Positions 7,135 through 63,250 of a DNA stretch of 64,000 bases are shown piece after piece. Location: the IMG/VR virus record IMGVR_UViG_3300028800_002449; one strand, written 5' to 3'. The notes below the pieces were generated by a model that searched no databases, was not told the origin of the DNA, and saw nothing but the letters and a program-made list of their open reading frames with translations. Made by a program: the position numbers and the translations under genes. This stretch comes from a virus. Each line of letters opens with the position of its first letter. Positions within the stretch are counted from its first letter, which is position 1.

Positions 7135-7617
7135 TCACGAGTCCTTTTCGGCGACAGGCTTCTTTTCGATCCTCGCGACGTAGCCCTGGCACGTCGCACA
7201 ATGGTCGCAGGCCCTCGGGCCAGGCATGTAGAAGTGTTGGCCGTAATCGCCGCCGCAGGTGCATCTCCGGGACTCCGGCTCCAACTTCGCACAGTCGACC
7301 AGCGACTGCACGATTTTGGCGGCGATGTCGACGTCGATGTCCTTGATCCAGTGCAAGGAGATCTCGAAACGACCGTCCCCGATGCAGCCGAAGGTAATCG
7401 AGATTTCCGTGTGCGGCTTGAAGGCGATCGTGTGAGGGCCGTAGCCGTGCTTGGTCGAGGGGACGTCGACGCCCATCTGACCGAGCTTGACGGCGATATC
7501 GTTGGCGTCTCTGCCCAGCTCAGGCCGACAAGTTCTTCCGTGGTTCCTCTCGGCGATCTGCCAGCCGCACTTGGGGCAGACCTTCAGACCGTCGACGTAG
7601 ACGATTTCTTTGGTCAT
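7135..7617 (-). CDS. Zinc-ribbon-containing hypothetical protein, 160 aa
   Basis: CPKCG...C and CTCGG...CDHCATC clusters. Confidence 0.5.
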   Translation of the reverse strand: MTKEIVYVDGLKVCPKCGWQIAERNHGRTCRPELGRDANDIAVKLGQMGVDVPSTKHGYGPHTIAFKPHTEISITFGCIGDGRFEISLHWIKDIDVDIAAKIVQSLVDCAKLEPESRRCTCGGDYGQHFYMPGPRACDHCATCQGYVARIEKKPVAEKDS

Positions 7618-7618
7618 G

Positions 7619-8236
7619 TCACAACCCCAGGAACAAGGGCATACCCATCGGGATGCGCATCTGGTTCGGCCGACTCGCGGCGTAGATCGTCTGGAGAGCG
7701 AAGGCGTAGGCGGTCGGACGTAGAGACGGATCGGAGACGGAGGCGGCGATCTTCTCGGCCTTCGAGACGGTCGTAGCCAGCTTCTCCTCGACGTCCTTGG
7801 CCTCCGAGAACTCTCGGAGCTTGCCTTCCGCGGCGCTCTTGGCGGCTCTCAGGCCGTCGACCTCGTCATAGAGCTGCTTCTTCTCAGCCCTCAACATGTT
7901 GACGGTGTCGTTCAGCTGACGATTCTGCGTCATTACCAGCTGGTAGATCACAGGATCCAAGGCACCCTCGTCGCCGTGTTGATCCAGCTTCATGCCCAGC
8001 GAGAGCGTCATCTGGGCCAGGCAGTTCTTCACCTCCCTCAAGCTCTTGCGACCGAAGCTCCTCAGCTTGAGGAGATCCGTCTCGTTCTTCTGGACGAGGT
8101 CTCGAAGAGTCGTGATCCGCGCGTCGATCAACCGCCCCTTCACGAAGTTCGTGAGCGACATGTTGGAGATTGGCATCGAAAGCCTCGCTTCGAGCGTCGG
8201 CAATGAGTCGTGGTCGAGATCAGCCATGAGATTCAC
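7619..8236 (-). CDS. RNA polymerase alpha-subunit C-terminal-domain (alphaCTD)-like protein fused to a coiled coil
   Basis: Residues around DLVQKNETDLLKLRSFGRKSLREVKNCLAQMTLSLGMKL align closely to E. coli RpoA CTD ([39 protein letters not shown]). Confidence 0.7.
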   Translation of the reverse strand: MNLMADLDHDSLPTLEARLSMPISNMSLTNFVKGRLIDARITTLRDLVQKNETDLLKLRSFGRKSLREVKNCLAQMTLSLGMKLDQHGDEGALDPVIYQLVMTQNRQLNDTVNMLRAEKKQLYDEVDGLRAAKSAAEGKLREFSEAKDVEEKLATTVSKAEKIAASVSDPSLRPTAYAFALQTIYAASRPNQMRIPMGMPLFLGL

Positions 8237-8420
8237 CTTCCAACTTCGTCGCCTTCGCTTCCATCATTTCCGCCGTACGAATCAGCTCCGCCGCGACCGT
8301 GCCGCTCGTCTTCGCGGCACGATCGCGCCTCGTCTTCGCGTCACGACGGTACATGTTGATGAGGACGCGAGGGTCGACGGCGGGCTGAGGCTTTCTCTTG
8401 CGACCGGCCACGAGGATCAA
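8220..8420 (-). CDS. Hypothetical basic protein, 66 aa
   Basis: ORF overlapping both neighbours by a few nt. Confidence 0.3.
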   Translation of the reverse strand: MILVAGRKRKPQPAVDPRVLINMYRRDAKTRRDRAAKTSGTVAAELIRTAEMMEAKATKLEGESHG

Positions 8421-9679
8421 CCCTTGACGCAGAGGACCTGCTTCAAGATGGCGACCGTGTCGACGAGATCGGCCTGGTTCTTCATGACGACGTCGATGTC
8501 CTTATAGGCTGACGGGATCTCGTCGATGATCCCCTCGTCCTTGCGACACTCGACGCCCTTCGTCTGAGCCTCCACGTCGGCGATCGTGTACTTGCGCTTC
8601 GCGGCCCCGCGGCTCATGCGCCGGCCCGCGCCGTGGCTCGCCGACATCAACGAGTCGGCGTTTCCGCGTCCGCGCACGATGTACGAGCGCGTGCCCATGG
8701 AGCCGGGGATGATGCCGTAGTCGTTCAGGCCCGCCCGGATCGCACCCTTGCGGGTCACGACGAGGTCCTCTCGGAAGTGGACCTCCTCCGAGACGTAGTT
8801 GTGGTGACAGAGGATCGGGTCGCCGAACTCGACCTCTGGGAAGAACTTCTTCATCGCCTCGGCGTACAGCACGAACATCACCTTCCGGTTGAGGAAGGCG
8901 TAGCGCTGCGCCCAGAAGAGGTCACGACGATAGGCGTCCATCTCGGGCGTGCCCTTGAGGAAGACCGCGAGATCGCGATCTGGCAGAAGCTCGTTGTGGG
9001 TCAGCTTCATCGCCTTGCCCATGTGGATCTCCGCCAAGGTCTTGCCGATGTTCCGAGACCCCGAGTGCAGGACCATGTACACGAACGGGTCTCGCTTCCC
9101 CGTCTCGTTGCAGTCGGAGCAGCCCATGGCGGGCACGCCCACGCCGACCATGCAGTCGCACGTGCCGTCGTCGAGGCAAAGCTCGATGAAGTGGTTGCCG
9201 CCGCCGAGCGTGCCGGACTGCTCGCGTGCGCGCTTCTCCAGATCGGAGACTCCGCCGTCGAGCATGGCGAATTCGGACCAGAGCACGTCGGCCTCGCGCT
9301 TGACCGATTCGGGCATGCGTCCACGGCCGACCGCGTGCTCGTGGCCTGAGAAGCCGACGGGGATGAGGCGCTCGATCTCAGCGCGAAGGGCGGACAGGTC
9401 GTCGGGCAGCTGGCTCGCCCGCAGGGTCGTGCGGATCGCGCCCATCCCGCAGCCGATGTCGACGCCGACGGCGGCCGGCGACACGGCATCCTTCATCGCG
9501 ATCACGGACCCGACAGTCGCGCCCTTGCCGAAGTGGACGTCCGGCATGACCGAGACGTGGACCACCCAGGGCAGCGACGCGATGTTGCGGAGCTGGTCGA
9601 GCGCCTGGCTCTCGACCTCCGCGATCTGGGTCCAGACCTTGATGTCGACCCGGCCACCCTTCAGCGTCTCGTAGCTCAT
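8417..9679 (-). CDS. rtcB: RtcB RNA-splicing/repair ligase
   Basis: 420 aa; motifs GNHFIEL, HSGSRNIG and ASHGAGR typical of RtcB. SD GAGGAGACAACC upstream. Confidence 0.9.
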   Translation of the reverse strand: MSYETLKGGRVDIKVWTQIAEVESQALDQLRNIASLPWVVHVSVMPDVHFGKGATVGSVIAMKDAVSPAAVGVDIGCGMGAIRTTLRASQLPDDLSALRAEIERLIPVGFSGHEHAVGRGRMPESVKREADVLWSEFAMLDGGVSDLEKRAREQSGTLGGGNHFIELCLDDGTCDCMVGVGVPAMGCSDCNETGKRDPFVYMVLHSGSRNIGKTLAEIHMGKAMKLTHNELLPDRDLAVFLKGTPEMDAYRRDLFWAQRYAFLNRKVMFVLYAEAMKKFFPEVEFGDPILCHHNYVSEEVHFREDLVVTRKGAIRAGLNDYGIIPGSMGTRSYIVRGRGNADSLMSASHGAGRRMSRGAAKRKYTIADVEAQTKGVECRKDEGIIDEIPSAYKDIDVVMKNQADLVDTVAILKQVLCVKG

Positions 9680-9699
9680 GGTTGTCTCCTCGCCAGCTA

Positions 9700-9750
9700 C
9701 CCTACCGGCACCACTATTTTAGTCAAGATAATTTTACTCAGGATCAACCC
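9700..9750 (-). promoter_or_regulatory. Promoter motif type 1 upstream of rtcB (coding strand AAATTATCTTGACT-N16-TAGGGT)
   Basis: AT-rich island in a GC-rich sequence; plus strand reads TATTTTAGTCAAGATAATTTTA; a -35-like TTGACT and a -10-like TAGGGT. Confidence 0.55.
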
Positions 9751-10018
9751 AGTAGTCGGGCAGCACCTGAGCATTTTCGTCTTCCATACCGTCGCGACTC
9801 GCGTGCTCATCACACGACGGCGTTCCATCTGCGAGCAGGGTCGTAGCGATACGGCGACATGTGACGCCCTCGAACGTCGAGCAGCGGTCACCATCGAAGG
9901 TGGGTGGTGTCGGCGTCTGATTGGTGACCATGCATCGTCCGCTACTCTTTCGAGCGGTGCGATCTATGACGACCTGACGTCGACCGTCGCGGTGATAGAT
10001 GATTCCCTTGCCACTCAT
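9734..10018 (-). CDS. Hypothetical Cys-containing protein, about 94 aa
   Basis: Internal Met MSGKGIIYHRDG of ORF 9734..10216(-). Confidence 0.35.
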   Translation of the reverse strand: MSGKGIIYHRDGRRQVVIDRTARKSSGRCMVTNQTPTPPTFDGDRCSTFEGVTCRRIATTLLADGTPSCDEHASRDGMEDENAQVLPDYWVDPE

Positions 10019-15029: not shown

Positions 15030-15075
15030 CCAGACCAGTATCTTACGCAAGATAAAAAATAAAAAATCTTTCAGC
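15030..15075 (-). promoter_or_regulatory. Promoter motif type 1 (coding strand TTTTTATCTTGCGTAAGAT-N13-TAGGAT)
   Basis: Plus strand reads TATCTTACGCAAGATAAAAAATAAAAAA. Palindromic TATCTT-ACGC-AAGATA overlaps a TTGCGT -35; TAGGATGG -10. Confidence 0.6.
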
Positions 15076-15325
15076 CTTCGGGCTGGGACCTCTTGAGGCT
15101 CTCGAAGTCTTCGTCGATGACCATCTCCTCGCAGGCACTCCCGTGCAGACGGCACTCTCCGACGATCCCACCGCCTACCATCCACACATGCGTGCGAAGC
15201 TCGCAGCCGCATCGGGCGCAGATGGTGTCACCTCGGAGCTGCTGCCATTCCTCCTGAGCGAGCGTCACGAGCTTCTTCGGCTCGACGTCGACCTCTTGCG
15301 CGTCGGAGACCGCGAGGCTCTTCAT
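15071..15325 (-). CDS. Zinc-ribbon hypothetical protein, about 84 aa
   Basis: Internal Met MKSLAVSD; CARCGC...C. Confidence 0.35.
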   Translation of the reverse strand: MKSLAVSDAQEVDVEPKKLVTLAQEEWQQLRGDTICARCGCELRTHVWMVGGGIVGECRLHGSACEEMVIDEDFESLKRSQPEG

Positions 15326-27218: not shown

Positions 27219-27509
27219 CTATGATCGGAAAGAGGAGAGAGCCTTCTTGGTCAGGTAGGACAGCAGCGCGAAGTCAGGCACGGCATGGCGGTTGTCTCTC
27301 TTCGGATCGAACTCGTGAGGGTCGCCGTTGTAGGCGTGGTACTCCTCCGTTAGCTTGTCGATCTCAGCCTTCGACATGTACTTGGACATGTCGAAGTCGT
27401 TGCATCCGTTGTTTCCGAGCTGATCGGCTGCCTTCTCGACGACGTCGAGGAGGATCTTCTGCTCACCAGGGCTCAGAGCCATAGCGCGCAGGATAGGCGC
27501 TCTCCTCAA
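27219..27509 (-). CDS. Hypothetical protein, 96 aa
   Basis: ORF. Confidence 0.4.
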   Translation of the reverse strand: MRRAPILRAMALSPGEQKILLDVVEKAADQLGNNGCNDFDMSKYMSKAEIDKLTEEYHAYNGDPHEFDPKRDNRHAVPDFALLSYLTKKALSSFRS

Positions 27510-27527
27510 TCTTGTTCAAGAGAAAAG

Positions 27528-42821: not shown

Positions 42822-43424
42822 TCATGTGGTCTTCAGAACGATTTTGCTTGGGTCGATCTTACTTGGCTCGATCTTCTTCGGGAAGGCGATCTTGGTCAAG
42901 GTCGCGACCATGTCTTGGCAGGCTTCCTTGTAGTTCGTGAAGGCATACATCTGATAGTGCTCATTCCGCGAGGTCAGATCAGGCCTCGGCGTATAACCCC
43001 ATGTCGCTGTAAAGTTACATGAGTAGGAGTCGTTGTGCGGAGCGTTTACCTCACGCCACTCCACGTTCAAGTAGTAGTACCAGAACTCGGAAACGGGCGG
43101 CCACTTGTGGGTCAGATCTCCATACGCACGAGCGGCTGACCAGTGTGGAGTGATGATATTCGTCTGTCCGCCCATCTTGAGCACGCGATACAGCTCGTTC
43201 ACGAAGTGAACGCGTTCGACGCTGTCGAAGTGTTCGACGACATGGCTCGCGTTGACCGCTTCGACAGAGTCATTTTCCCAGGGCCACGTCTTCGTCAGGT
43301 CCACGACCTGATCCACGCCGGGAAACGGACGGCTGTCGACGCCGATCCAGTCGGCAGCGATCTTGTTCTTCCCGCATCCGAGGTCGAGCTTCAAGGGAGG
43401 AAGGATGACGTGATTGAAAATCAA
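42822..43424 (-). CDS. Class I SAM-dependent methyltransferase
   Basis: LDLGCGKNK motif I, SVEAVNASHVVEHF, KMGGQ. The listed TTG start lies inside the type 2 element, so the true start may be the downstream TTG (MKLDLGCG). Confidence 0.65.
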   Translation of the reverse strand: MIFNHVILPPLKLDLGCGKNKIAADWIGVDSRPFPGVDQVVDLTKTWPWENDSVEAVNASHVVEHFDSVERVHFVNELYRVLKMGGQTNIITPHWSAARAYGDLTHKWPPVSEFWYYYLNVEWREVNAPHNDSYSCNFTATWGYTPRPDLTSRNEHYQMYAFTNYKEACQDMVATLTKIAFPKKIEPSKIDPSKIVLKTT

Positions 43425-45272: not shown

Positions 45273-48200
45273 CAGATAGAGCTGTTCACGAAGTTGAAGT
45301 ATTGCCTCAGAGTCGAGGCATAGCTGACGATGTCTGCAAACCTGACCGTCGACGGCATCGTTGCTGAAGAGACGGTCCAAACTCCGGCTCCAGGATAGAC
45401 CTGTGAGTTCGTGACGTTCGTCGTCTGACCCCAGATGCGCATGCTGTTCGTATTGTTCACTGCGGGCAACGCCTGCGCGAACATGCTGTTGAAGCTCCAA
45501 ACACCTCCAGGGGCCGGCACGGTGCCGGCTGTCGTGCTGCTCGTCGACCATGCCTGCGCGAACCAGTAGTTACCTGGACGAACAGTCGTGTTGAATCCGA
45601 TTGGGACCACGATTGAACCGGAAAGAACGTTCCTCAAGCTCGATTGAAACGCTGTCGCCAAGGTCGAACTCAAAGCTGATGCTGCGGTGTTGAGAGCAGT
45701 CGAGGCACCGAGTGATGTCGTCGTGTAGTTACCACTCGCGTCGATTGAAACGACATAAGACATGGTCGCTCCGACAGACACGCTCAAATTCGTCGAGGCT
45801 GCGCCTGACATCGAAACGGACACGGAGGAGGAGATCGCAACCGAGAAGGAGTTCGACCACACTGACTCAAGGCGCGTGCTGTTGGTTCCGACGCCGAGGC
45901 TGTAAAGGCCGACAGTGTTCCCGAATATGAAGCTGACGCTGGCCGAGCCCGTCGAGTTCGTCTGGAAGTTAGAGCTTGACGCTCTCAAGAGAGACGAGGC
46001 TGCGCTCTGAAAGCTCAAGATCCTGTTGACGCGACCGCCGCTCAGATTCACGGGCAGATTGAAGGGCTCGAAGTACCAGCTTCCGATGCCAGGAGGGTAG
46101 TTCGTCGTCGACGTATAGATCGGATACGGTTCGAAGTTCGTGTACGAAGGTCCGCTGACTGAGATCGTGCTGACATTCGTCGAGATGATGATCCCACCGA
46201 CGCCGACCAGGCTTGACGTGGCTGGCACGCTCGCCGTGACAGTGCTGCCGCTCATTCCGAACGTAATGCCGTTGCTGTTCGAGAAGACGACGGTGCCAGA
46301 CGATTGTGAAGATCCAGCTGCTGAGATCGCCACGCCGCCGCCACCGCCTCCACCAGCTGGTCCGGTTGCTCCTTGAGCACCCGTCGCGCCCTGAGGTCCC
46401 GTCACGCCTGAACCTTGAGGCCCCGTCGGACCCGTCTCGCCGGCTGTTCCCGTCGCTCCTTGCGACCCGGTAGGCCCCGTCGCGCCGGCTGTTCCCGTCG
46501 CTCCTTGCGGTCCCGTCGGCCCCGTCGCGCCGGCTGTTCCCGTCGCTCCTTGCGGCCCCGTCGGACCCGTCGCGCCGGCTGTTCCGGTCGCTCCTTGCGG
46601 TCCCGTCGGACCCGTCGCGCCGACGTTGCCCGTCGCTCCTTGAGCGCCTGACGCGCCCTGAGGTCCCGTCGCGCCTTGGGGACCGGTTGCACCCTGTGGT
46701 CCAGTAGGTCCCGTTGAGCCCTGCGGTCCGATCGAACCCGTCGCGCCTTGCGGTCCCGTCGGGCCCGTCGCGCCTTGCGGTCCCGTCGGGCCCGTCGCGC
46801 CCTGCGTTCCTTGAGCGCCGGTCGGTCCCGTCGAGCCCGCGCTCCCCGTCGGCCCCTGAACGCCGGTCGCGCCCTGAGGCCCCGTCGGGCCCGTCGCACC
46901 TTGGGTTCCCTGAGGGCCTGTCGGTCCCGTCGAGCCCGCGCTTCCCGTCGGGCCCTGAACGCCTGTCGCGCCTTGCGGTCCCGTCGGGCCCGTCGCGCCC
47001 TGCGTTCCCTGAGGGCCGGTCGGTCCCGTAGAGCCCGCGCTTCCCGTCTGGCCTTGAGCGCCGGTCGCGCCCTGCGGCCCCGTCGGCCCGGTCGCACCTT
47101 GGGTTCCCTGAGGGCCTGTCGGTCCCGTGGAGCCCTGCGGTCCGATCGAGCCCGTCGCGCCCTGAGGACCTGTCGCACCTGTCGTGTCGTTGCCGGTCGC
47201 GCCACGAGCGCCAGTGGAGCCTTGAGGACCCGTCGGCCCGGTCGCGCCCTGCGTTCCTTGAGGGCCGGTCGGTCCCGTGGAGCCCGCGCTTCCCGTCGGG
47301 CCCTGAGCGCCGGTCGCGCCCTGCGGTCCCGTCGGGCCGGTCGCGCCCTGCGTTCCCTGCGGTCCCGTCGGACCCGTCGCGCCCTGCGTTCCCTGAGGTC
47401 CGGTCGGTCCGGTCGAACCAGCGCTTCCCGTCGGGCCCTGAGCGCCGGTCGCACCTTGCGGTCCCGTCGGGCCCGTCGCGCCCTGCGTTCCCTGAGGTCC
47501 GGTCGGTCCGGTCGAACCGGCGCTTCCCGTCGGGCCCTGAGCGCCGGTCGCACCTTGCGGTCCCGTCGGGCCCGTCGCGCCCTGTGTTCCCTGAGGTCCG
47601 GTCGGTCCCGTGGAGCCCTGCGGTCCGATTGAGCCCGTCGCGCCCTGAGGGCCCGTTGCGCCTGTCGTGTCGTTGCCGGTCGCGCCACGCGCGCCAGTGG
47701 AGCCTTGCGGCCCCGTCGGCCCGGTCGCGCCCTGAGTTCCTTGAGGGCCGGTCGGTCCCGTCGAGCCTGCGCTCCCCGTCGGGCCCTGAGCGCCTGTCGC
47801 ACCTTGAGGTCCGGTCGGTCCCGTCGAGCCAACGCTTCCCGTCGGGCCCTGAGCGCCAGTCGCACCTTGAGGTCCCGTCGGTCCCGTCGCGCCCTGCGGC
47901 CCCGTCGGCCCAGTCGCGCCCTGCGTTCCTTGAGGGCCGGTTGGTCCCGTGGAGCCCGTGCTTCCCGTCGGGCCCTGAACGCCCGTCGCGCCCTGAGGCC
48001 CCGTCGGCCCGGTCGCGCCTTGGGTTCCCTGAGGGCCGGTCGGTCCCGTGGAGCCCTGCGGTCCGATCGAGCCCGTCGCACCCTGAGGGCCCGTCGCGCC
48101 CGTCGTGTCGTTGCCGGTCGCTCCACGTGCGCCAGTGCTGCCTTGCGGCCCCGTCGGCCCGGTCGCGCCCTGAGTTCCTTGGGGGCCGGTCGGTCCGGTC

Positions 48201-50794
48201 GCACCCGCGTTGCCCGTCGGGCCCTGGGCGCCCGTTGCTCCGACCGCGCCGGTTGCGCCCTGCGGCCCCGTCGACCCGGTCCCGCCCTGCGTTCCCTGAG
48301 GACCGGTCGGCCCAGTCGAGCCAGCGCTTCCCGTCGGACCCTGCGTGCCCGTCGCTCCGGCCGCGCCGGTTGCGCCTTGCGGCCCCGTAGGCCCGGTCCC
48401 CCCCTGCGTTCCCTGAGGGCCTGTCGGCCCGGTCGAGCCCGCGCTGCCCGTGGCTCCAGCAGCGCCGGTCGTGCCTTGCGGCCCCGTCGGCCCGGTCGCA
48501 CCCTGCGTTCCTTGAGGGCCGGTCGGTCCCGTCGCGCCCGCGTTGCCCGTCGGGCCCTGAGTGCCCGTTGCTCCGGCCGCCCCGGTCGTGCCCTGCGGTC
48601 CCGTCGGTCCGGTCGCGCCTTGCGTTCCCTGAGGACCGGTCGGTCCGGTCGAGCCGGCGCTGCCCGTGGCTCCAGCAGCTCCAGTCGTGCCTTGCGGTCC
48701 TGTCGGCCCGGTCGCGCCTTGTGTTCCCTGAGGGCCGGTCGGCCCGGTTGCGCCAGCGCTGCCCGTGACTCCAGCAGCGCCGGTCGTGCCTTGCGGACCC
48801 GTCGATCCGGTCGCGCCTTGTGTTCCCTGAGGGCCGGTCGGTCCCGTTGAACCTGCGCTCCCCGTCGGTCCCTGTGTGCCGGTCGCTCCGGCTACGCCGG
48901 TCGTGCCTTGTGGTCCCGTCGGCCCGGTTGCGCCCTGCGTTCCCTGAGGGCCGGTCGGTCCCGTCGAGCCTGCGCTCCCCGTCGGACCCTGCGTGCCGGT
49001 CGCTCCGGCCGCGCCGGTCGTGCCCTGAGGACCTGTCGGTCCAGTAGAGCCAGGGCTTCCCGTCGGACCCTGCACGCCAGTCGCGCCCTGCGGTCCCGTC
49101 GGTCCCGTGGCACCTTGATTTCCCTGAGGACCCGTCGGACCAGTCGAACCGACTGCGCCCGTTGATCCCTGAGCACCTGTTGAGCCGGCGACGCCAGTCG
49201 CGCCGATCGCACCCGTCGCGCCCTGAGTTCCCTGACTTCCTTGCGGACCTGTCGGTCCCGTCGTACCAGAGCCCTGCGGACCCGTGGGCCCGGTTACGCC
49301 TTGGGGACCCTGTGGTCCAGTCGGACCGGTCGTGCCAGAGCCCTGCGGTCCCGTGGGGCCCGTTACACCTTGAGGTCCCTGCGGTCCCGTCGGTCCTGTC
49401 GTACCAGAGCCCTGTGGACCCGTGGGGCCGGTTACGCCTTGAGGTCCTTGTTGTCCCTGAGGTCCCGTTGGCCCCGTCGTGCCAGAGCCCTGCGGTCCCG
49501 TCGGTCCCGTGGCTCCTTGAGGACCTTGCGCGCCTGTCGGGCCAGTTGCACCAGCTCCTTGCGGGCCCGTCGGTCCAGTTGCGCCCTGAGGGCCCTGCGA
49601 GCCCGTAGGACCAGTGCTTCCTGCGCCCGTTGCACCCTGAGGCCCCGTCGGACCCGTCGCACCCTGAGCGCCAGTAGGGCCCGTGGGGCCCGTCATCCCT
49701 ATGCCGGTAGCACCTTGTGGTCCGGTGGCACCCGTTCCGCCTTGAGGACCAGTCGGTCCGGTCGCGCCCTGAGCGCCCGGCGAGCCGGCGCCCCCCTGCG
49801 GTCCGGTCGGCCCCGTGCTTCCCTGTGGACCGGTCGCGCCCTGTGCGCCCGTCGGTCCCGTCGAACCTTGAGGACCTGGCGAGCCGTTGCCGCCCTGAGG
49901 ACCGGTCGGCCCCGTGGGACCGGTCGCGCCCTGAGGACCCGCACTTCCCTGAGGACCGGTTGGACCCGTGCCGCCAATGCTGCCCGTCGGACCTTGCGCG
50001 CCTGTCGGTCCCGTTGAACCCTGAGGGCCGGGAGATCCTGCTCCGCCTTGGGGACCGGTCGGACCGGTCGCGCCAGTCGGACCCTCGGGGCCGGTCGCGC
50101 CTTGCGGACCGACAGAACCTGTCGAACCTTGCGAGCCCGTTGCGCCGCGTGAGCCCGTTGGACCCGTAGTGCCCTGCGCGCCCGGAGATCCTGCGTTGCC
50201 CTGCGGCCCCGTCGGGCCGGTCGCGCCCTGCGGTCCAGTCGGGCCCGTAGAGCCCTGCGGCCCCGGAGATCCTTGTCCCTGAGGACCCGTCGCACCTTGC
50301 GGGCCCGTCGGGCCAGTCGGTCCAGGACCCGTGCCTGCCGGACCCGTCGCCCCCTGCGGTCCCGTCGGCCCCGTCGCGCCCGGAGGTCCCTGAGGACCCG
50401 TCGCGCCCGTGCCGCTGCCACCACCTCCGCAGTTGCAATTTTCTTCGGCGGCGACGCTGACGACGACGTCTTCGAGGATGATGCCGACGGGCAGCAGGCG
50501 CAGGTAACGAACTGTCGCGTTCTGGACGAAGATCGGAGAGAGGTTGCGCACGTTGTGCGCGACGTTCTCGGAGAGCCTGTCGATGTTGAACTGGCAGAGA
50601 GTGCTCCACGACGCGTTGTCGAGGCTGCCTTCCACGCAGATGTCGCCGCCCCTGAAGAGACCCTTCGAGAGGACGAAGGTCAGATCTCTATCGAGCCCCG
50701 ATGGCGGGACGAGCGTGACCAAGTCGATGCTGGGCTGAGCGCCAACAGCACGAGCTGGGAGGATCGGAAATGTGAGGAAATTGTTAGCGCCCAT
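45272..50794 (-). CDS. Giant collagen-like fibre protein 1 (1840 aa)
   Basis: About 125-aa N-terminal domain, then roughly 1265 residues of Gly-X-Y ([10 protein letters not shown]...), then about 440-aa Ser/Thr/Asn-rich C-terminal domain. Confidence 0.9.
46600..50440 (-). repeat. Gly-X-Y collagen triplet repeat region of fibre protein 1 (coding tandem repeats)
   Basis: Higher-order 13-triplet units ([33 protein letters not shown]) recur more than 20 times. Three copies of a longer block carry GNDTTG interruptions. Confidence 0.85.
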
Positions 50795-52061: not shown

Positions 52062-54580
52062 CTACGGGTTCGCGATCGTCGTGACGGTTCCCGAAGGACC
52101 CTTCACCTTCAGACCGCCTGCTTCACCCCAAAGGAAATAACCATTGAGTGGGTTCCCCGTCGAGGGAGTGCTGCTCGCGATGTTGATGAACATGACGCCA
52201 GAACCGCCCTGGAAGGGTGTATTCGTTCCTGCGAACAGGACGAAGTTGCCGTGTCCGATTGATGACTGACCGAACGCGCCAGCCTGGTTTTGCGCATCAG
52301 CCTGGAACGAGACGCCTGCACCTGCCTTCGAAGCCAACAGAGTCGCGAGACCACCCGTGCCCGTGCCGCCGATGTCCGTGCTCGTGAGCGTCAACCCCCC
52401 CGAAGATCCATCGGCAGCGGTCACGTTATCGACGAAGATCGTGCTCCAGACAGTGGAAGTACCCCCGAGGTTGTACGTCTTGTTCGCGGTCGGCGTGATC
52501 GTACCGGTGACCGTGATCGATGCCGAGCCGAGCGTGATCGCCGTGTTGAAAGAGGCGTTGTTCGAGAGCTGGAGAGAGCTTCCACCGATGCCTTGGACGT
52601 TCTCGACGTAGACGGTTCCCCAACCCGACGAAGACGAGCCGAGGTTGTATGCGAAGCTTGAGGTCGGCACGACGCTACCGATCACGGTGATCGATGCGCT
52701 GCCGAGCGTGATCTCGGTGTTGCCCGAGGCATTGTTGGCCAGCTGGAGTGAGCTGCCGCCGATGCCCTGGATGTTCTCAGTGTAGATGATGCTCCACCCT
52801 GACGACGCTGAGCCCAGTGTGTATGTGAAGTTCGAGGCCGGAACTATGTTACCCGTCTGCGCGACGTTGCCCTGGATCTGAATGTTCGACCCGAGGATGA
52901 TCGCCGTCGCCGCACCACCGTTGTTGAACAGAGACAGCGTGCCACTCGGGATGCCCTCGATCGACGTAGTCATGAGGACTGTGTCTAAACGCGTGGTACC
53001 AGACTGCACCCACAACGCGTAGCCGTTCGTAATCGACAGGCTTCCACCCGTGATTGGTGCTCCCTTGATCGTGAACGTCGCAGCGTTCGTGATCGCCACG
53101 ACCGAGACGTCCGTGTACGTCGGCTGCTCGATCGTGAAGAGGTTGTATCCCGTCGCGGTCGTGATGTTCGTCGTGCCCGTGACGGTCTGCGTGCCACCCT
53201 CGAAGTGGAACGCGTTGAGGGTCGCGCCGGCCGCGCTCGCGATGGTCGTGTTCACGGTGAAGTCGTCGGCGCTCGCGACGGTGGCGGTCGTGGTGCTCGT
53301 GAGCTTGGTGAGCGTGAGCGTCAAGGCGCCAGAGATCTGCATTCCACCGTCGAGACGGGTCAGTCCCTGCTGAACCCAGAGCGCATAGGAACCCATGATG
53401 GTCAGGTTGCCGGTGTTGATCGGAGCGCCATGGATGGCCACCGTCGCTGCGGTCGTGATCGTCATCAGCGACGTGTCCGTGTACGTGGGTCGCTCGACCG
53501 TGAAGTAGTTGACGCCGGTCGGAGTCGTGATGCCTGTCGTTCCGGTGAACGTGATCGTCGACGAATCGATGTGGAACGCGTCGAGGACCGTCCCAGAGGC
53601 GCTCGCGATCGATCCTTGCGCGATGAAGTCGAACGCATCCTGCGGCGTCGTCGTGATGATCGTGACGCTCGACGAGTTCTGGATGCTGACGCCACCGTTG
53701 GTTCCGTTGAGAGAGAAGACGGTCGTGCCGCCCGTGCCGTCGATCAACGTCGTGCTGTTCAACGTCAGGAACTGTCCGGTCGCCACGCCGATGTTGAGAG
53801 ACGTCAGCGCGCCCTGCTGCCAGCCGATCATGTTGTTGGCGTAGACGTTGTCGTTGACGCCGATGCTGGCAGTGCCACCGCTGTTGCGGTTGTTCAGGTA
53901 GAGCGCGAGGCCGGTGCCGAAGCCGCCCGCGGCGCCTTGAAGCACGCCGTTGATCTCCATCGTCGTCGCGACGATCATCGTCAGCGCGCTCGCCGCCGTG
54001 TAAGTCGGCGAGCGAACGGTGATCATGCTGATCGAACCGATGTTGGACGAGCCCGTGATCGTGACCGTGACCGGGTCCCACAGGTACGAGTCGAGGATGC
54101 CCGTCGCGCTCGCGACGTTCGGTGGCGTGATGCCCCACTCGAACACGGTGCCGTTCGCAGCCGTCAGCACCGAGTTCGTCGACGAGAAGGACGTGTACCC
54201 GATGTTCTTCCACTGGAACGTGCCGGCGGTGCCGTTCGGCGTCCAGATGCTGTAGATCGTGTTGTTGAGGTTCAGCTCCATGGCGTTGTTGTCCGCCGTG
54301 CCGAAGAAGAACGTGCCGCCCGTCTTGTAGAGCGTCTGAGCGCCAGCGCCCGTCAGAGCAATCGCCGAGCTGCCCGATCCGATCTGACCGATCGTCAGCG
54401 GAGCGCCAGCGCCCACGGCGTCAGCTCCGATCAGCAGCCTGTGGTTGACGGGGTCCCATCGGAAGAGGTTGTCCTGGCCGACCTTCGTCGCCGTCGCCGC
54501 GAAGAGGACATCGGGAGCGATGAGCTGCGCACCGCTCGGGCCCGTGGCTGCGAGACCGCCCTGCGGGCCGGTCGGTCCCG
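52062..54580 (-). repeat. Internal tandem peptide repeats in the C-terminal domain of fibre protein 2
   Basis: Two repeats of about 100 aa ([28 protein letters not shown]... and [28 protein letters not shown]...). Three repeats of about 55 aa ([34 protein letters not shown]...). Confidence 0.7.
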
Positions 54581-56411
54581 TCGGACCGAGGACGCCCTGA
54601 GGTCCGGTCGGACCCGTCGCTCCCTGCGTTCCTTGCGGGCCGATGCTGCCCGTCGCGCCCTGGGCGCCCGTCGCGCCTTGAGCGCCAGTCGCGCCACGAG
54701 GACCGGTCGGGCCCGTCGCACCCTGGGTGCCGGCATTTCCCTGAGGTCCCGTCGGCCCCGTCGAGCCCTGCACGCCCTGCGGGCCGATCGTGCCCGTCGG
54801 TCCGACAGATCCCGTCGCGCCCTGAACGCCCGCGCCGCCCTGCGAGCCCGTCGAGCCCTGCACGCCTTGCGTTCCCTGAGGTCCCGTCGGACCGGTCGCG
54901 CCCTGCGTGCCCTGAGGTCCGATCGAGCCCGTCGCGCCCTGCTGGCCCGTCGCACCCCTCGCGCCCGTCGGGCCCGTGCTTCCCTGCGTGCCCTGAGATC
55001 CCTGCGGGCCCGTCGGTCCGGTCGCGCCGACGCCCTGAGGCCCCGTCGGTCCAGTCGTGCCCTGCGTGCCCGCGGGGCCTTGAGGACCGGTCGGACCGGT
55101 CGCGCCCGAACCTTGCGGGCCGGTCGGACCCGTCGTGCCCTGAACGCCAGCACCACCTTGCGGGCCGGTCGGGCCGGTCGTGCCCGAGCCTTGCGGGCCC
55201 GTCGGTCCCGTCGAGCCCTGGATGCCCGTCGCTCCTTGCGGACCTGCTGGACCGGTCGCGCCAGCTCCCTGCGGACCGGTCGGCCCCGTCGATCCTTGGA
55301 TGCCCGTCGCGCCGATCGTGCCGGTCGCGCCCTGCTGGCCGGTCGCGCCCGTGCCGCCCCTCGGACCCGTGGGACCCGTTCCACCCTGAGGACCCTGCGG
55401 TCCCGTCGGGCCGGTCGCGCCTGCGCCTTGCGGGCCTGTCGGTCCTGTCGATCCTTGTATGCCGGTCGCGCCTTGAGGTCCGGCCGCGCCCGTCGCGCCA
55501 GCTCCCTGCGGACCCGTCGGTCCCGTCGAGCCCTGGATGCCAGTGGCTCCTTGCGGACCTGCTGGACCGGTCGCGCCAGCTCCCTGCGGGCCGGTCGGCC
55601 CCGTCGATCCTTGGATGCCCGTCGCGCCGATCGTGCCGGTCGCGCCCTGCTGACCGGTCGCGCCCGTGCCACCCCTCGGGCCCGTCGGACCCGTTCCGCC
55701 CTGAGGACCCTGCGGACCAGTCGGGCCGGTCGCGCCCGAGCCCTGAGGACCTGTCGAGCCCGTCGCTCCGGCTGCGCCCGTCGGACCTTGAGAGCCGGTC
55801 GGGCCCGTCGCGCCGAAGCCGGCAGGGCCCGTCGGGCCGGTCGCGCCCGGCGCGCCAGTCGGCCCTTGGCTGCCCACACCCGTCGCGCCCTGAGGTCCCG
55901 TGGCGCCAGCCGTGCCAGGCGCACCCGTCGGACCCACGGGGCCCGTCGAGCCCGGAGCGCCCGTCACACCTTGAGGACCGCCTGCGGGACCCGTCGCGCC
56001 CTGAGGACCCGTGGCGCCCGTGCCACCGCCGCCGGTCTGGCAGTCGCAGTTCTGCTCGCCCGCGACGGTGATGAAGACGTCGCCCGTGATCCTGCCGATG
56101 ACGTTCAGCCGGAGGAAGCGGACGATCGTGCTCTCGACGAGAACAGGATCGAGGACGAGGGTGAACTGAGGAGCTTGGCCGCCAGACTCACCCGGATCTC
56201 GGACGCTGAACTGGCAGAGCGTGCTCCACGCGATGCCGTCGACGCTGCCCTCGACCGAGATGATGCCGAAGAACCCACCGTTCCCGAAAAGGAACGTGAG
56301 ATCTGCACCCAATCCCGTTGACGGGACGAGCGACGTCAGATCTATCGAGGATTGAGTCCCAGACGCGCCTCGCGGCACGACGGGAAACGCGATGAAATTG
56401 TTGATGCCCAT
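52062..56411 (-). CDS. Giant collagen-like fibre protein 2 (1449 aa)
   Basis: N-terminal domain paralogous to fibre protein 1 ([13 protein letters not shown]... versus [13 protein letters not shown]...). About 480-residue Gly-X-Y region, then an 840-aa C-terminal domain. Confidence 0.9.
54580..56030 (-). repeat. Gly-X-Y collagen triplet repeat region of fibre protein 2
   Basis: [23 protein letters not shown]...; the opposite-strand ORFs here are Arg/Ala-rich artefacts. Confidence 0.85.
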
Positions 56412-58521: not shown

Positions 58522-58598
58522 TGGTACGCAAAGTTGGATTTGAACCAACGATCTTCCGCTTCAGAGGCGAACGTCCTACCAGACTGGACGATTTGCAT
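58522..58598 (-). tRNA. tRNA-Gln (anticodon CUG), 77 nt with encoded CCA
   Basis: Manual fold: acceptor ATGCAAA/TTTGCGT, D-arm GTCC-AGTCTGGTA-GGAC, anticodon arm TTCGC-CTCTGAA-GCGGA, T-arm GTTGG-TTCAAAT-CCAAC, discriminator A, CCA. Confidence 0.8.
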
Positions 58599-63204: not shown

Positions 63205-63250
63205 CGGACGATGCTAAGTCTATCGCAAATCTTGGTCAAGATAAAAACGA
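63205..63250 (-). promoter_or_regulatory. Promoter motif type 1 (TTTTTATCTTGACCAAGAT-N13-TAGCAT)
   Basis: Plus strand reads AAATCTTGGTCAAGATAAAAACG; palindrome ATCTTG-GT-CAAGAT. Confidence 0.6.

Follow-up and report, generated by a model that had tools for sequence, protein, structure and literature searches.

The subject of this analysis is gene X, which lies on the minus strand of a 64,000-nucleotide stretch of viral DNA (IMG/VR record IMGVR_UViG_3300028800_002449; the whole stretch is referred to here as the window). Gene X encodes a genuine detached C-terminal domain of the RNA polymerase (RNAP) α subunit (αCTD), homologous to that of bacterial RpoA, and its source is an uncultivated tailed jumbo phage of ~260 kb. 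Within the protein, the domain is followed by a flexible linker, a predicted coiled coil and a conserved C-terminal module, and comparison with syntenic orthologues indicates that the αCTD is probably a lineage-specific addition made in one sub-lineage. Judging from the residues that are kept and lost, what X conserves does not appear to be an ability to imitate the host αCTD faithfully at UP elements. We tentatively favor a possible role, still short of a probable one, as an oligomeric adaptor in which the αCTD-derived heads would provide low-specificity attachment to DNA and the C-terminal module would hold a conserved partner.

Gene X encodes a detached αCTD

The open reading frame (ORF) of gene X runs from 7619 to 8236 on the minus strand when read from a GTG codon, and this reading gives the 205-amino-acid (aa) product of the original prediction, which had left the strand unstated. 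While that ORF is present, the protein is most likely 202 aa long and starts at the ATG at 8227 (7619..8227, minus strand; stop codon at 7619-7621), because the GTG at 8236, which sits within the sequence GGAAGGTGAATCTCATG, is covered by the Shine-Dalgarno sequence GGAAGGTG located 5 nt upstream of this ATG. The entry for this protein in a public protein collection, P0001, agrees, as it is exactly the 202-aa ATG product. Residue numbers refer to the 202-aa protein, and adding 237 to a residue of X gives the equivalent residue of Escherichia coli RpoA.

X matched the Pfam family PF03118 (RNA_pol_A_CTD) with an E value of 1.7e-11 and 44.1 bits against a gathering score of 23.8. In the 205-aa reading the match spanned residues 16-74, aligned to profile positions 8-66 (59 of 67), and the sister protein P0002 scored 40.2 bits against the same family. 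A phmmer search of X against all PDB sequences retrieved only RpoA αCTDs (E. coli 1coo, E 1.5e-8, 39% identity over ~75 residues). PF03118 was the sole Pfam family above its gathering score, and PF01000 and PF01193, the families of the α N-terminal domain (αNTD), were absent from X. The protein is not an RpoA equivalog (TIGR02027, 48 bits against a cut-off of 227.8), and the best NCBIfam RpoA model, at 65.6 bits against a cut-off of 302, aligned over model positions 250-325 alone. The original prediction had described the N-terminal segment as highly similar to the RpoA αCTD. The similarity is real, but this wording overstates it because identity to RpoA αCTDs is moderate, reaching ~48% over the domain for the best-matching RpoA and 64% to the RpoA consensus across the last 50 residues. 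A scan of genomes restricted to exact peptide patterns gave mostly RpoAs of Pirellulaceae, which share LEAKLNMPIS and RDLVQKNE; these scored ~50 bits, below other RpoAs of unassigned taxonomy (~60 bits).

A structural model of X was generated with AlphaFold 2 (AF2) from an alignment of X, the sister protein and RpoAs, an input that favors the αCTD fold. The mean predicted local distance difference test (pLDDT) score of the model was 86, with values >90 for the αCTD helices (residues 12-72), low confidence for residues 73-91, helices at 92-162 and 167-185, and a disordered tail at 186-202. The N-terminal domain forms a compact four-helix fold with two helix-hairpin-helix (HhH)-like units, and a Foldseek search of the model against the PDB returned αCTD structures exclusively (target TM-score (TMt) 0.8-0.95, root-mean-square deviation 0.6-1.0 Å, 65-69 residues). 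The original prediction was to be given up if X lacked both a PF03118 match and an HhH αCTD fold; the domain has both, and its identification as an N-terminal RpoA αCTD is confirmed.

The αCTD-derived domain comprises residues ~9-82 (7982..8203, minus strand), as delimited by PF03118, the PDB phmmer matches, AF2, Foldseek and the residue table described below. It is followed by a flexible linker (residues 83-91; 7955..7981, minus strand) with a pLDDT of ~54 and no secondary structure, where the orthologue of the related contig L002 matches at one residue in nine, with indels. A long helix, predicted to form a coiled coil, occupies residues 92-162 (7742..7954, minus strand) as a single 71-residue helix with a pLDDT of 95-98. 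The conserved C-terminal helix (residues 163-185; 7673..7741, minus strand) carries the motif DPxLRxTAYAFAL at 166-178, and the protein closes with a disordered tail rich in Pro, Met and hydrophobic residues (186-202; 7622..7672, minus strand) that ends RIPMGMPLFLGL and is a candidate docking peptide.

Orthologues of X with and without the αCTD

Among 5.8 billion proteins, which are cluster representatives of ~15 billion proteins, a word-indexed search identified one full-length relative of X, P0002 (199 aa, 53% identity, encoded on a 70.9-kb contig). The remaining matches were RpoAs aligned via the αCTD only, and the C-terminal 118 residues of X searched alone retrieved P0002 only. An exhaustive HMMER search of 1.84 billion representatives, made with the C-terminal half of X, returned P0002 together with P0121 (119 aa) and P0122 (113 aa), as well as one repetitive 1468-aa protein (E 4e-5); a follow-up profile search found no members beyond the four. 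The C-terminal profile matched nothing in IMG/VR or in JGI metagenome contigs, and X had no PHROG hit with an E value under 0.003. In tblastn searches of 50,697 phage records with X and with the αCTD alone, the only hits were to bacterial rpoA, in records that were contaminated or mislabelled, and no homologue from a phage appeared.

P0121 and P0122 lack the αCTD; in both, a short low-complexity N-terminus is followed by the coiled coil, DPxLRxTAYAFAL and a tail with P..P..L. All four genes share a syntenic block (major-vault-protein (MVP)-shoulder, ParB_N, ..., RtcB, YRRDA gene, X, ..., DnaJ, ..., PTH2, RF-1), and the orthologue of gene X in L002 occupies the equivalent position. At the αCTD-less loci there is no space upstream for a missed αCTD exon, and tblastn found no αCTD elsewhere in these loci. 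Because two syntenic orthologues do without the αCTD, the family core is the coiled coil, DPxLRxTAYAFAL and the tail, and the core function of the family appears to need no αCTD. In the αCTDs of X and the sister protein, six derived states are shared at RpoA-conserved sites (I257, V266, L289, L292, R293 and V303), indicating that the domain had a single origin in these two proteins.

The original prediction also placed a coiled coil behind the αCTD. The AF2 helix at 92-162 agrees with this, and the periodicity of hydrophobic residues at heptad a/d positions of the long helix was significant in all four family members (p = 0.016 in X and 0.002 or lower in the three relatives). Profile matches of the X helix to leucine-zipper and SMC-type sequences were weak. 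The motif DPxLRxTAYAFAL is invariant in all four members, as are the tail residues P193, P197 and L200, which have low pLDDT; tail sequences vary among the four members, and that of P0122 terminates in PYMLMR. A profile of the C-terminal module searched against the PDB returned coiled-coil noise and nothing else.

The conserved, disordered tail may dock X on a partner. One reading is a factor tethered to RNAP or the replisome, with the tail docking on a ring or cleft such as the sliding clamp, or on the RNAP core, and thereby supplying αCTD arms in trans to a machine that has none. The C-termini PLFLGL, PMFLGM and PFFLG resemble QLxLxL clamp-binding hexapeptides; the likeness of the X tail, PLFLGL, to peptides of the QL[SD]LF / QLxLxL type is partial, and the usual Gln is missing. 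There is a precedent in phage T4, where gp33 and gp55 dock through short hydrophobic C-terminal epitopes behind variable linkers (PMC2988020). The P0122 terminus also speaks against such docking, and the tail of X was found in no other ORF in ~85 kb of this phage and the related loci, unlike the epitopes that T4 polymerase, gp33 and gp55 have in common. In the regions covered we also saw no gene for a clamp, a σ factor or RNAP. We consider a tethered factor of this kind quite unlikely.

DNA, σ and activator contacts of the αCTD

In E. coli α, DNA is contacted by the "265 determinant" (R265, N268, C269, G296, K298 and S299), and the R265A substitution abolishes UP-element function. D259 and E261 contact region 4 of σ70, and residues 285-290 and 315-318 contact CAP-type activators. 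We aligned X, the sister protein P0002 and 105 full-length RpoAs to the E. coli numbering (equivalent residues in X and E. coli are F28=R265, K30=A267, G31=N268, R32=C269, G59=G296, K61=K298, S62=S299 and K80=R317). Both orthologues keep the RpoA residues L253, L270, I275, D280-L281-V282-Q283, F295, G296, S299, L300, E302, L307, M310, L312, L314-G315-M316-K317 and D319; this set corresponds to the hydrophobic core, the glycine of the second hairpin and the C-terminal LSLGMK motif.

The DNA-contact positions were kept differently. Positions of the 265 determinant, together with V264 and N294, are at least 99% conserved in the 105 RpoAs, and R265 is present in 105 of 105. X has F at 265, with N264, V266, G268, R269 and S294, and retains G296, K298 and S299; the determinant as a whole is absent. 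The sister protein retains R265, G296 and S299, and its other DNA-contact residues are replaced. Positions 259, 260, 264, 268, 269, 278 and 294 differ both from RpoA and between X and the sister. The σ region 4 contacts are likewise missing, with N259 and S261 in X and T259 and P261 in the sister against E/D in the RpoAs. At the activator patch, X (NETDLL, G315, K317, L318) is near the RpoA consensus, and the sister reads SPSYLR, G315, K317, I318. The net charge of the αCTD is +6 in X and +2 in the sister, compared with -1 in E. coli and -2 in Mariniblastus RpoA; K267 was gained in both orthologues, and R269 in X and K268 in the sister add to the basic residues. Because these heads are basic, non-specific contact with DNA stays plausible. 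Faithful reading of UP elements by the αCTD of X is not plausible from these residues, and X is probably no faithful competitor of the host domain.

A further observation concerns P0032 (254 aa, from an 869-bp ENA contig), a non-RpoA protein with two tandem αCTD repeats. SVRxxxCL is present in both of its repeats, and the second has the full SVRxxNCL including N268. P0032 shows that a detached αCTD can retain the DNA-reading residues when they are needed, and that such domains occur elsewhere.

Promoters of the window and UP-element recognition

Gene X is third in a tight operon composed of RtcB, a gene of ~66 aa, X and a 160-aa Cys-rich gene. A σ70-like promoter, whose function we infer from its sequence, heads the operon at 9699..9733 on the minus strand (AATTATC-TTGACT with the -35 element at 9721-9726, 16 nt, and TAGGGT as the -10 element at 9699-9704), and the 5' untranslated region (UTR) of the operon ends GAGGAGACAACC-ATG. 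The core motif of the promoter, ATCTTGNNNAARAT, has 16 matches in the window (both strands, one mismatch) against 0.64 expected, and it occurs at equivalent positions in L002. A generic promoter scanner applied to 4-16 kb found no consensus promoter, and the class was recognized through the recurring motif only. At 15048, 25451 and some other sites, a long T-rich tract immediately precedes a TTGxxx -35 element. These are the "type 1 promoters" of the original prediction, and they look like σ70-type promoters with UP-like tracts. Because the promoters look σ70-type, host RNAP probably transcribes these genes, X included. In L005, a related contig whose X lacks the αCTD, the same T-tract and ATCTTG promoter precedes a ParB-like gene (cttttttcattttttaTCTTGCGTAAAATAC...TTAGGATGG; a single case). 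Because L005 has the same promoter, the T-tract promoters appear to be independent of the αCTD fusion, and the A/T tracts would most simply be read by the host's own αCTD.

These results bear on the central proposal of the original prediction, in which X competes with or replaces the host αCTD at A/T-rich UP tracts. Spelled out, X would be a faithful αCTD mimic on the UP tracts of the phage σ70-like promoters, or on host rRNA UP elements, and would switch transcription with an outcome like that of T4 ModA or G1 gp67 reached by a different route. The presence of a detached αCTD in a phage holds; its role as a UP-tract competitor and host-takeover factor is weakened by four sequence-level results. 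First, the DNA and σ determinants are lost, with F replacing the invariant R265 and with V264, N268, C269 and N294 replaced differently in each orthologue. Second, αCTD-less orthologues exist, and third, L005, one such phage, has the same T-tract promoter. Fourth, X itself lies behind a promoter of the same class. The retention of SVRxxxCL in P0032 is a further point against the proposal. A complete αCTD fold, G296, K298 and S299 in X, R265 in the sister, the basic domain and the T-rich tracts right upstream of the TTGxxx elements are nevertheless what such a mimic would have, and the heads of a dimer would imitate two αCTDs at the proximal and distal UP subsites. Weighing both, we regard faithful mimicry at UP elements as unlikely.

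The promoter core also reads as a 14-bp palindrome, ATCTTG-NN-CAAGAT, with the TTGAC -35 element inside it. Copies are located at 9716-9729, 15040-15053, 19301-19314, 25443-25456, 27509-27522, 42889-42902, 63229-63242 and 63865-63878 (gene strand minus). The palindrome is followed after ~17 nt by TAGNAT and often then by the conserved 5' UTR GAGGAGACAACC(C)ATG. Beyond its -35 role, it might act as an operator for a dimeric regulator, and at 63860-63883 two divergent promoters may share a single palindrome. The GC hairpin CAGCCCGAAGGCTG is found at 15072-15085, 5 nt upstream of the long T-rich tract at 15048-15070; part of this UP-like tract may double as the terminator U-tract of the upstream gene.

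Divergence of X

One 35-residue fragment match aside, none of the 39 orthologous pairs between this phage and L002 has diverged as far as the X pair. X is 53% identical to its L002 orthologue, and its neighbors are mostly 72-97% identical (96-97% for RtcB, DnaJ and ParB_N). By segment, identity is 46% in the αCTD, 11% in the linker, 39% in the N-terminal coiled coil and 82% in the last 62 residues. Estimates of dN/dS (ω) by the Nei-Gojobori method (NG86) were about 0.27 for the whole αCTD (dS 1.8, saturated), about 0.7 for the first half of the αCTD (31 codons; dS 0.86), 0.26 for the last 62 residues (dS 0.42) and 0.06-0.09 for RtcB, DnaJ and ParB_N (dS 0.25-0.29). The N-terminal two-thirds of X is hypervariable at synonymous and non-synonymous sites, and the C-terminal module is constrained. 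Rapid evolution and module exchange could each have produced this hypervariability, and saturation of dS in the αCTD and coiled coil limits what dN/dS by domain can tell.

Divergence of this extent is a pattern common in conflict proteins, and X may be a decoy or sponge whose αCTD heads capture proteins that bind or modify the host αCTD, while the coiled coil adds avidity and the tail localizes the complex or targets it for disposal. Potential targets are a class-I-type activator, NusA AR2, an α-modifying enzyme of the host or of another phage, or a defense sensor. The C-terminal half of the αCTD (280-319, including G315, K317 and L318 of the activator patch) is 64% identical to the RpoA consensus. 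Phages are also known to attack αCTD function: T4 Alt/ModA ADP-ribosylate R265, and G1 gp67 blocks the contact between the αCTD and UP elements via σ region 4. The GNAT protein Rac of phiKMV mediates cleavage of RNAP α (PMC7552054), and gp67 of Staphylococcus aureus phage G1 is also relevant here (PMC3694059). However, the surfaces for known partners differ between the orthologues (NETDLL against SPSYLR at 285-290, with 259/261 changed in both), and a bait for factors that recognize R265 would not have F at this position. Because dS is raised in the same segment, the pattern fits module exchange or long divergence no less well than positive selection. We consider a decoy doubtful, though worth keeping in view.

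It is very improbable that the αCTD is a decaying passenger, acquired by illegitimate recombination and now drifting without a function of its own. The N-terminal half of the domain does appear nearly neutral by its ω over the 31 codons, the signature residues are gone and the family works without the domain. However, in both lineages the ORF is intact, the hydrophobic core is complete and, at ~50% divergence, the Pfam score still exceeds the cut-off by ~20 bits; the ω of the whole domain is well below that of its first half, and the six shared derived substitutions have been retained.

A proposed adaptor function

The αCTD was probably acquired from a bacterial rpoA and joined to the older C-terminal module in one sub-lineage. 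In the adaptor reading that we prefer, the coiled coil would pair or bundle X chains, and the conserved C-terminal helix and tail would dock onto a conserved partner. Flexible linkers would then present at least two basic (HhH)2 heads, which would attach the complex to DNA with little sequence specificity and at most a bias to A/T minor grooves. As αCTD-like arms acting in trans, the heads may hinder or add to contacts upstream of promoters. In favor of this reading are the basic charge of the heads, the heptad periodicity of the long helix, the G296 and S299 kept and the K267 gained in both orthologues, the constraint on the C-terminal module, and the precedent of the αCTD-like domain in BREX PglW.

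Several points weigh against this proposal. The sister has Q and N at 297 and 298, where X has R and K, and its loss of K297 and K298 indicates that the backbone contacts of the second hairpin are not uniformly kept. The searches found no homologues of the C-terminal module outside the four proteins. A single gain of the αCTD, rather than a loss, is the parsimonious order for four unrooted members, and the estimates of selection are rough, resting on one sequence pair, two αCTD-bearing sequences and saturated dS. In addition, the fast divergence fits a protein-protein arms race of the kind a decoy would undergo as well as it fits relaxed DNA binding.

A more far-reaching possibility, which we judge improbable, is that X is a trans-acting αCTD that docks by its conserved C-terminal helix and tail on host RNAP or on a phage replication or transcription machine, the coiled-coil dimer lending that machine a second αCTD pair under phage control, with altered specificity for DNA and partners. 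If this were true, F265 would escape modification directed at R265, transcription would be redirected early in infection, and X would represent a new class of phage transcription factor made from a captured piece of the host polymerase. The probability left over we assign to functions outside those named here.

The known phage strategy is to disable or redirect host RNAP by small unrelated proteins or by modification of α, and the searchable literature yielded no characterized case of a phage using an RNAP-domain homologue. X appears to be a new architecture of an uncharacterized kind known at annotation level only. If its αCTD is a low-specificity DNA tether on an unrelated adaptor, this would be a case of ordinary domain accretion. 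X also cautions that a strong PF03118 match does not imply UP-element binding. The syntenic orthologues with and without the αCTD, and the two αCTD versions that differ at DNA-contact residues, form a comparison set; because this natural series exists, the role of the detached αCTD is directly testable.

The phage and the genes around X

The window corresponds to positions 123,825-187,824 of ENA contig k141_2938905 (ERZ27245399; 260,244 bp). PHROG matches identified a 1449-aa collagen-like tail fiber and a tail protein encoded in the contig, and the contig is assigned to a tailed phage because of these genes. Nearly all genes of the window are small, tightly packed and on the minus strand, and Pfam matches are few. 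Among the genes with a match are RtcB, DnaJ, PTH2 and a ParB_N-like gene, with RF-1 just outside the window. A DNA search of the first 20 kb against the 50,697 phage records gave short stretches only, and the short matches listed were RtcB genes of Caulobacter phiCbK-like phages.

The first gene of the operon encodes an RtcB RNA ligase (8417..9679, minus strand; PF01139) with 97% identity to its L002 orthologue. In L005, RtcB (7591-9810) is 739 aa long rather than 420 aa, with a large intein- or homing-endonuclease-like insertion after the conserved GVDIGC motif. Between RtcB and X lies a small conserved gene (8220..8420, minus strand) of ~58-66 aa, whose start codon is uncertain and whose stop overlaps the start of X, an overlap that suggests translational coupling of the two genes. 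Its product is basic and carries the motif YRRDAxTRR (in fuller form VDPxVLxxxYRRDAxTRR). All four contigs keep the gene, although in L006 its product makes up the N-terminal part of a longer, 160-aa protein. No family match was found for the product.

The 160-aa Cys-rich (zinc-ribbon-like) gene at 7135..7617 on the minus strand begins 1 nt past the stop of X. It is kept in L002 and L006, in the latter upstream of X. Searches of Pfam, PHROG and NCBIfam assigned the protein to no family at an E value under 0.01, and its single-sequence AF2 model was unusable (pLDDT 43). We discarded the idea that it is an Ogr/Delta-type zinc-finger activator, as it gave no Ogr/Delta Pfam match.

Elsewhere in the window, a 935-aa protein (16413-19220, minus strand) has the major-vault-protein shoulder domain PF11978 and a faint Vault_3 match, which is unusual in a phage; it is kept in three related phage contigs and has no PHROG match. 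The permease and ATPase of an ABC transporter, together with a 600-aa protein that has an OmpA domain, are encoded at ~20300-24230 (minus strand), and a large block of glycosyltransferases, S-adenosylmethionine (SAM) methyltransferases and a nucleotide-sugar epimerase occupies ~27-41 kb. At 46000-50000 and 54000-56000, inside ORFs of 1646 aa and 1449 aa, GC content is 73-74% with a strong negative AT skew; because the 1449-aa ORF matches collagen-like tail-fiber PHROGs, this composition reflects Gly-X-Y-type repeats. Translation-related cargo consists of a tRNA-Gln(CTG) at 58522-58598 (minus strand), a PTH2 peptidyl-tRNA hydrolase (L020 8932-9315) and an RF-1-type release factor (L020 12055-12699), which lies just beyond the start of the window. 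A 146-aa GNAT acetyltransferase is encoded on the opposite strand at L020 14279-14719, ~4 kb before window position 1.

Comparison with known systems

Free-standing αCTD-like folds are also found among annotated phage proteins. Foldseek matches of X in BFVD (E 1e-4 to about 2) include proteins of uncultured Caudovirales, Rhodococcus phage Finch and Mycobacterium phage Mithril, with 14-28% identity to X. None is known to have the coiled coil and DPxLRxTAYAFAL tail, and tblastn and PHROG show no link between them and X. The searchable literature held no functional study of free-standing phage αCTD proteins, which are represented by database annotations only. We also considered ORF40 of Erythrobacter phage vB_EliS-L02 (OL955261, L007 26543-27064) as a precedent and rejected it; its published label as an "αCTD protein" looks unsupported, since ORF40 does not resemble an αCTD, lacks any HhH-like sequence and matches no Pfam family at an E value under 0.01.

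An αCTD-like helical domain is also part of the nucleic-acid-binding portion of a non-RNAP protein, PglW of BREX type 2 (PMC12839542). PglW models matched X and the sister weakly and co-linearly over the αCTD and the helix (E 2.5e-4 to 4e-3), which is explained by the αCTD-like domain of PglW. These matches, at ~15-17 bits, are far under any cut-off, and we do not claim homology beyond the domain. PglW differs from X in being a host defense protein of 1400-1600 aa with nuclease, kinase, winged helix-turn-helix (wHTH) and iSTAND domains.

G1 gp67, T4 Alt/ModA and phiKMV Rac act on the host function that X had been proposed to target, and they have no homology to the αCTD in sequence or fold. 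T4 gp33 and gp55 resemble X in being small proteins with a variable linker and a conserved hydrophobic C-terminus, again with no homology to X. The T4 epitopes are hydrophobic and acidic and are common to the DNA polymerase, whereas the X tail is rich in Pro and Met and unique among the ORFs read.

The closest comparison is with the αCTD of RpoA itself (PF03118; PDB 1COO, 1LB2, 3K4G and 9ZUM), which is homologous and has the same fold, with DLVQ, FG(R)KSL and LSLGMKLD in common. In both proteins a flexible linker stands beside an oligomerization module, which in X is predicted. X differs from RpoA in having no αNTD, in the replacement of R265, N268, C269, V264, N294 and residues 259/261, and in a domain charge of +6 against about -1. 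The order of parts is also reversed, so that in X the αCTD-derived head comes first, followed by the linker and then the coiled coil.

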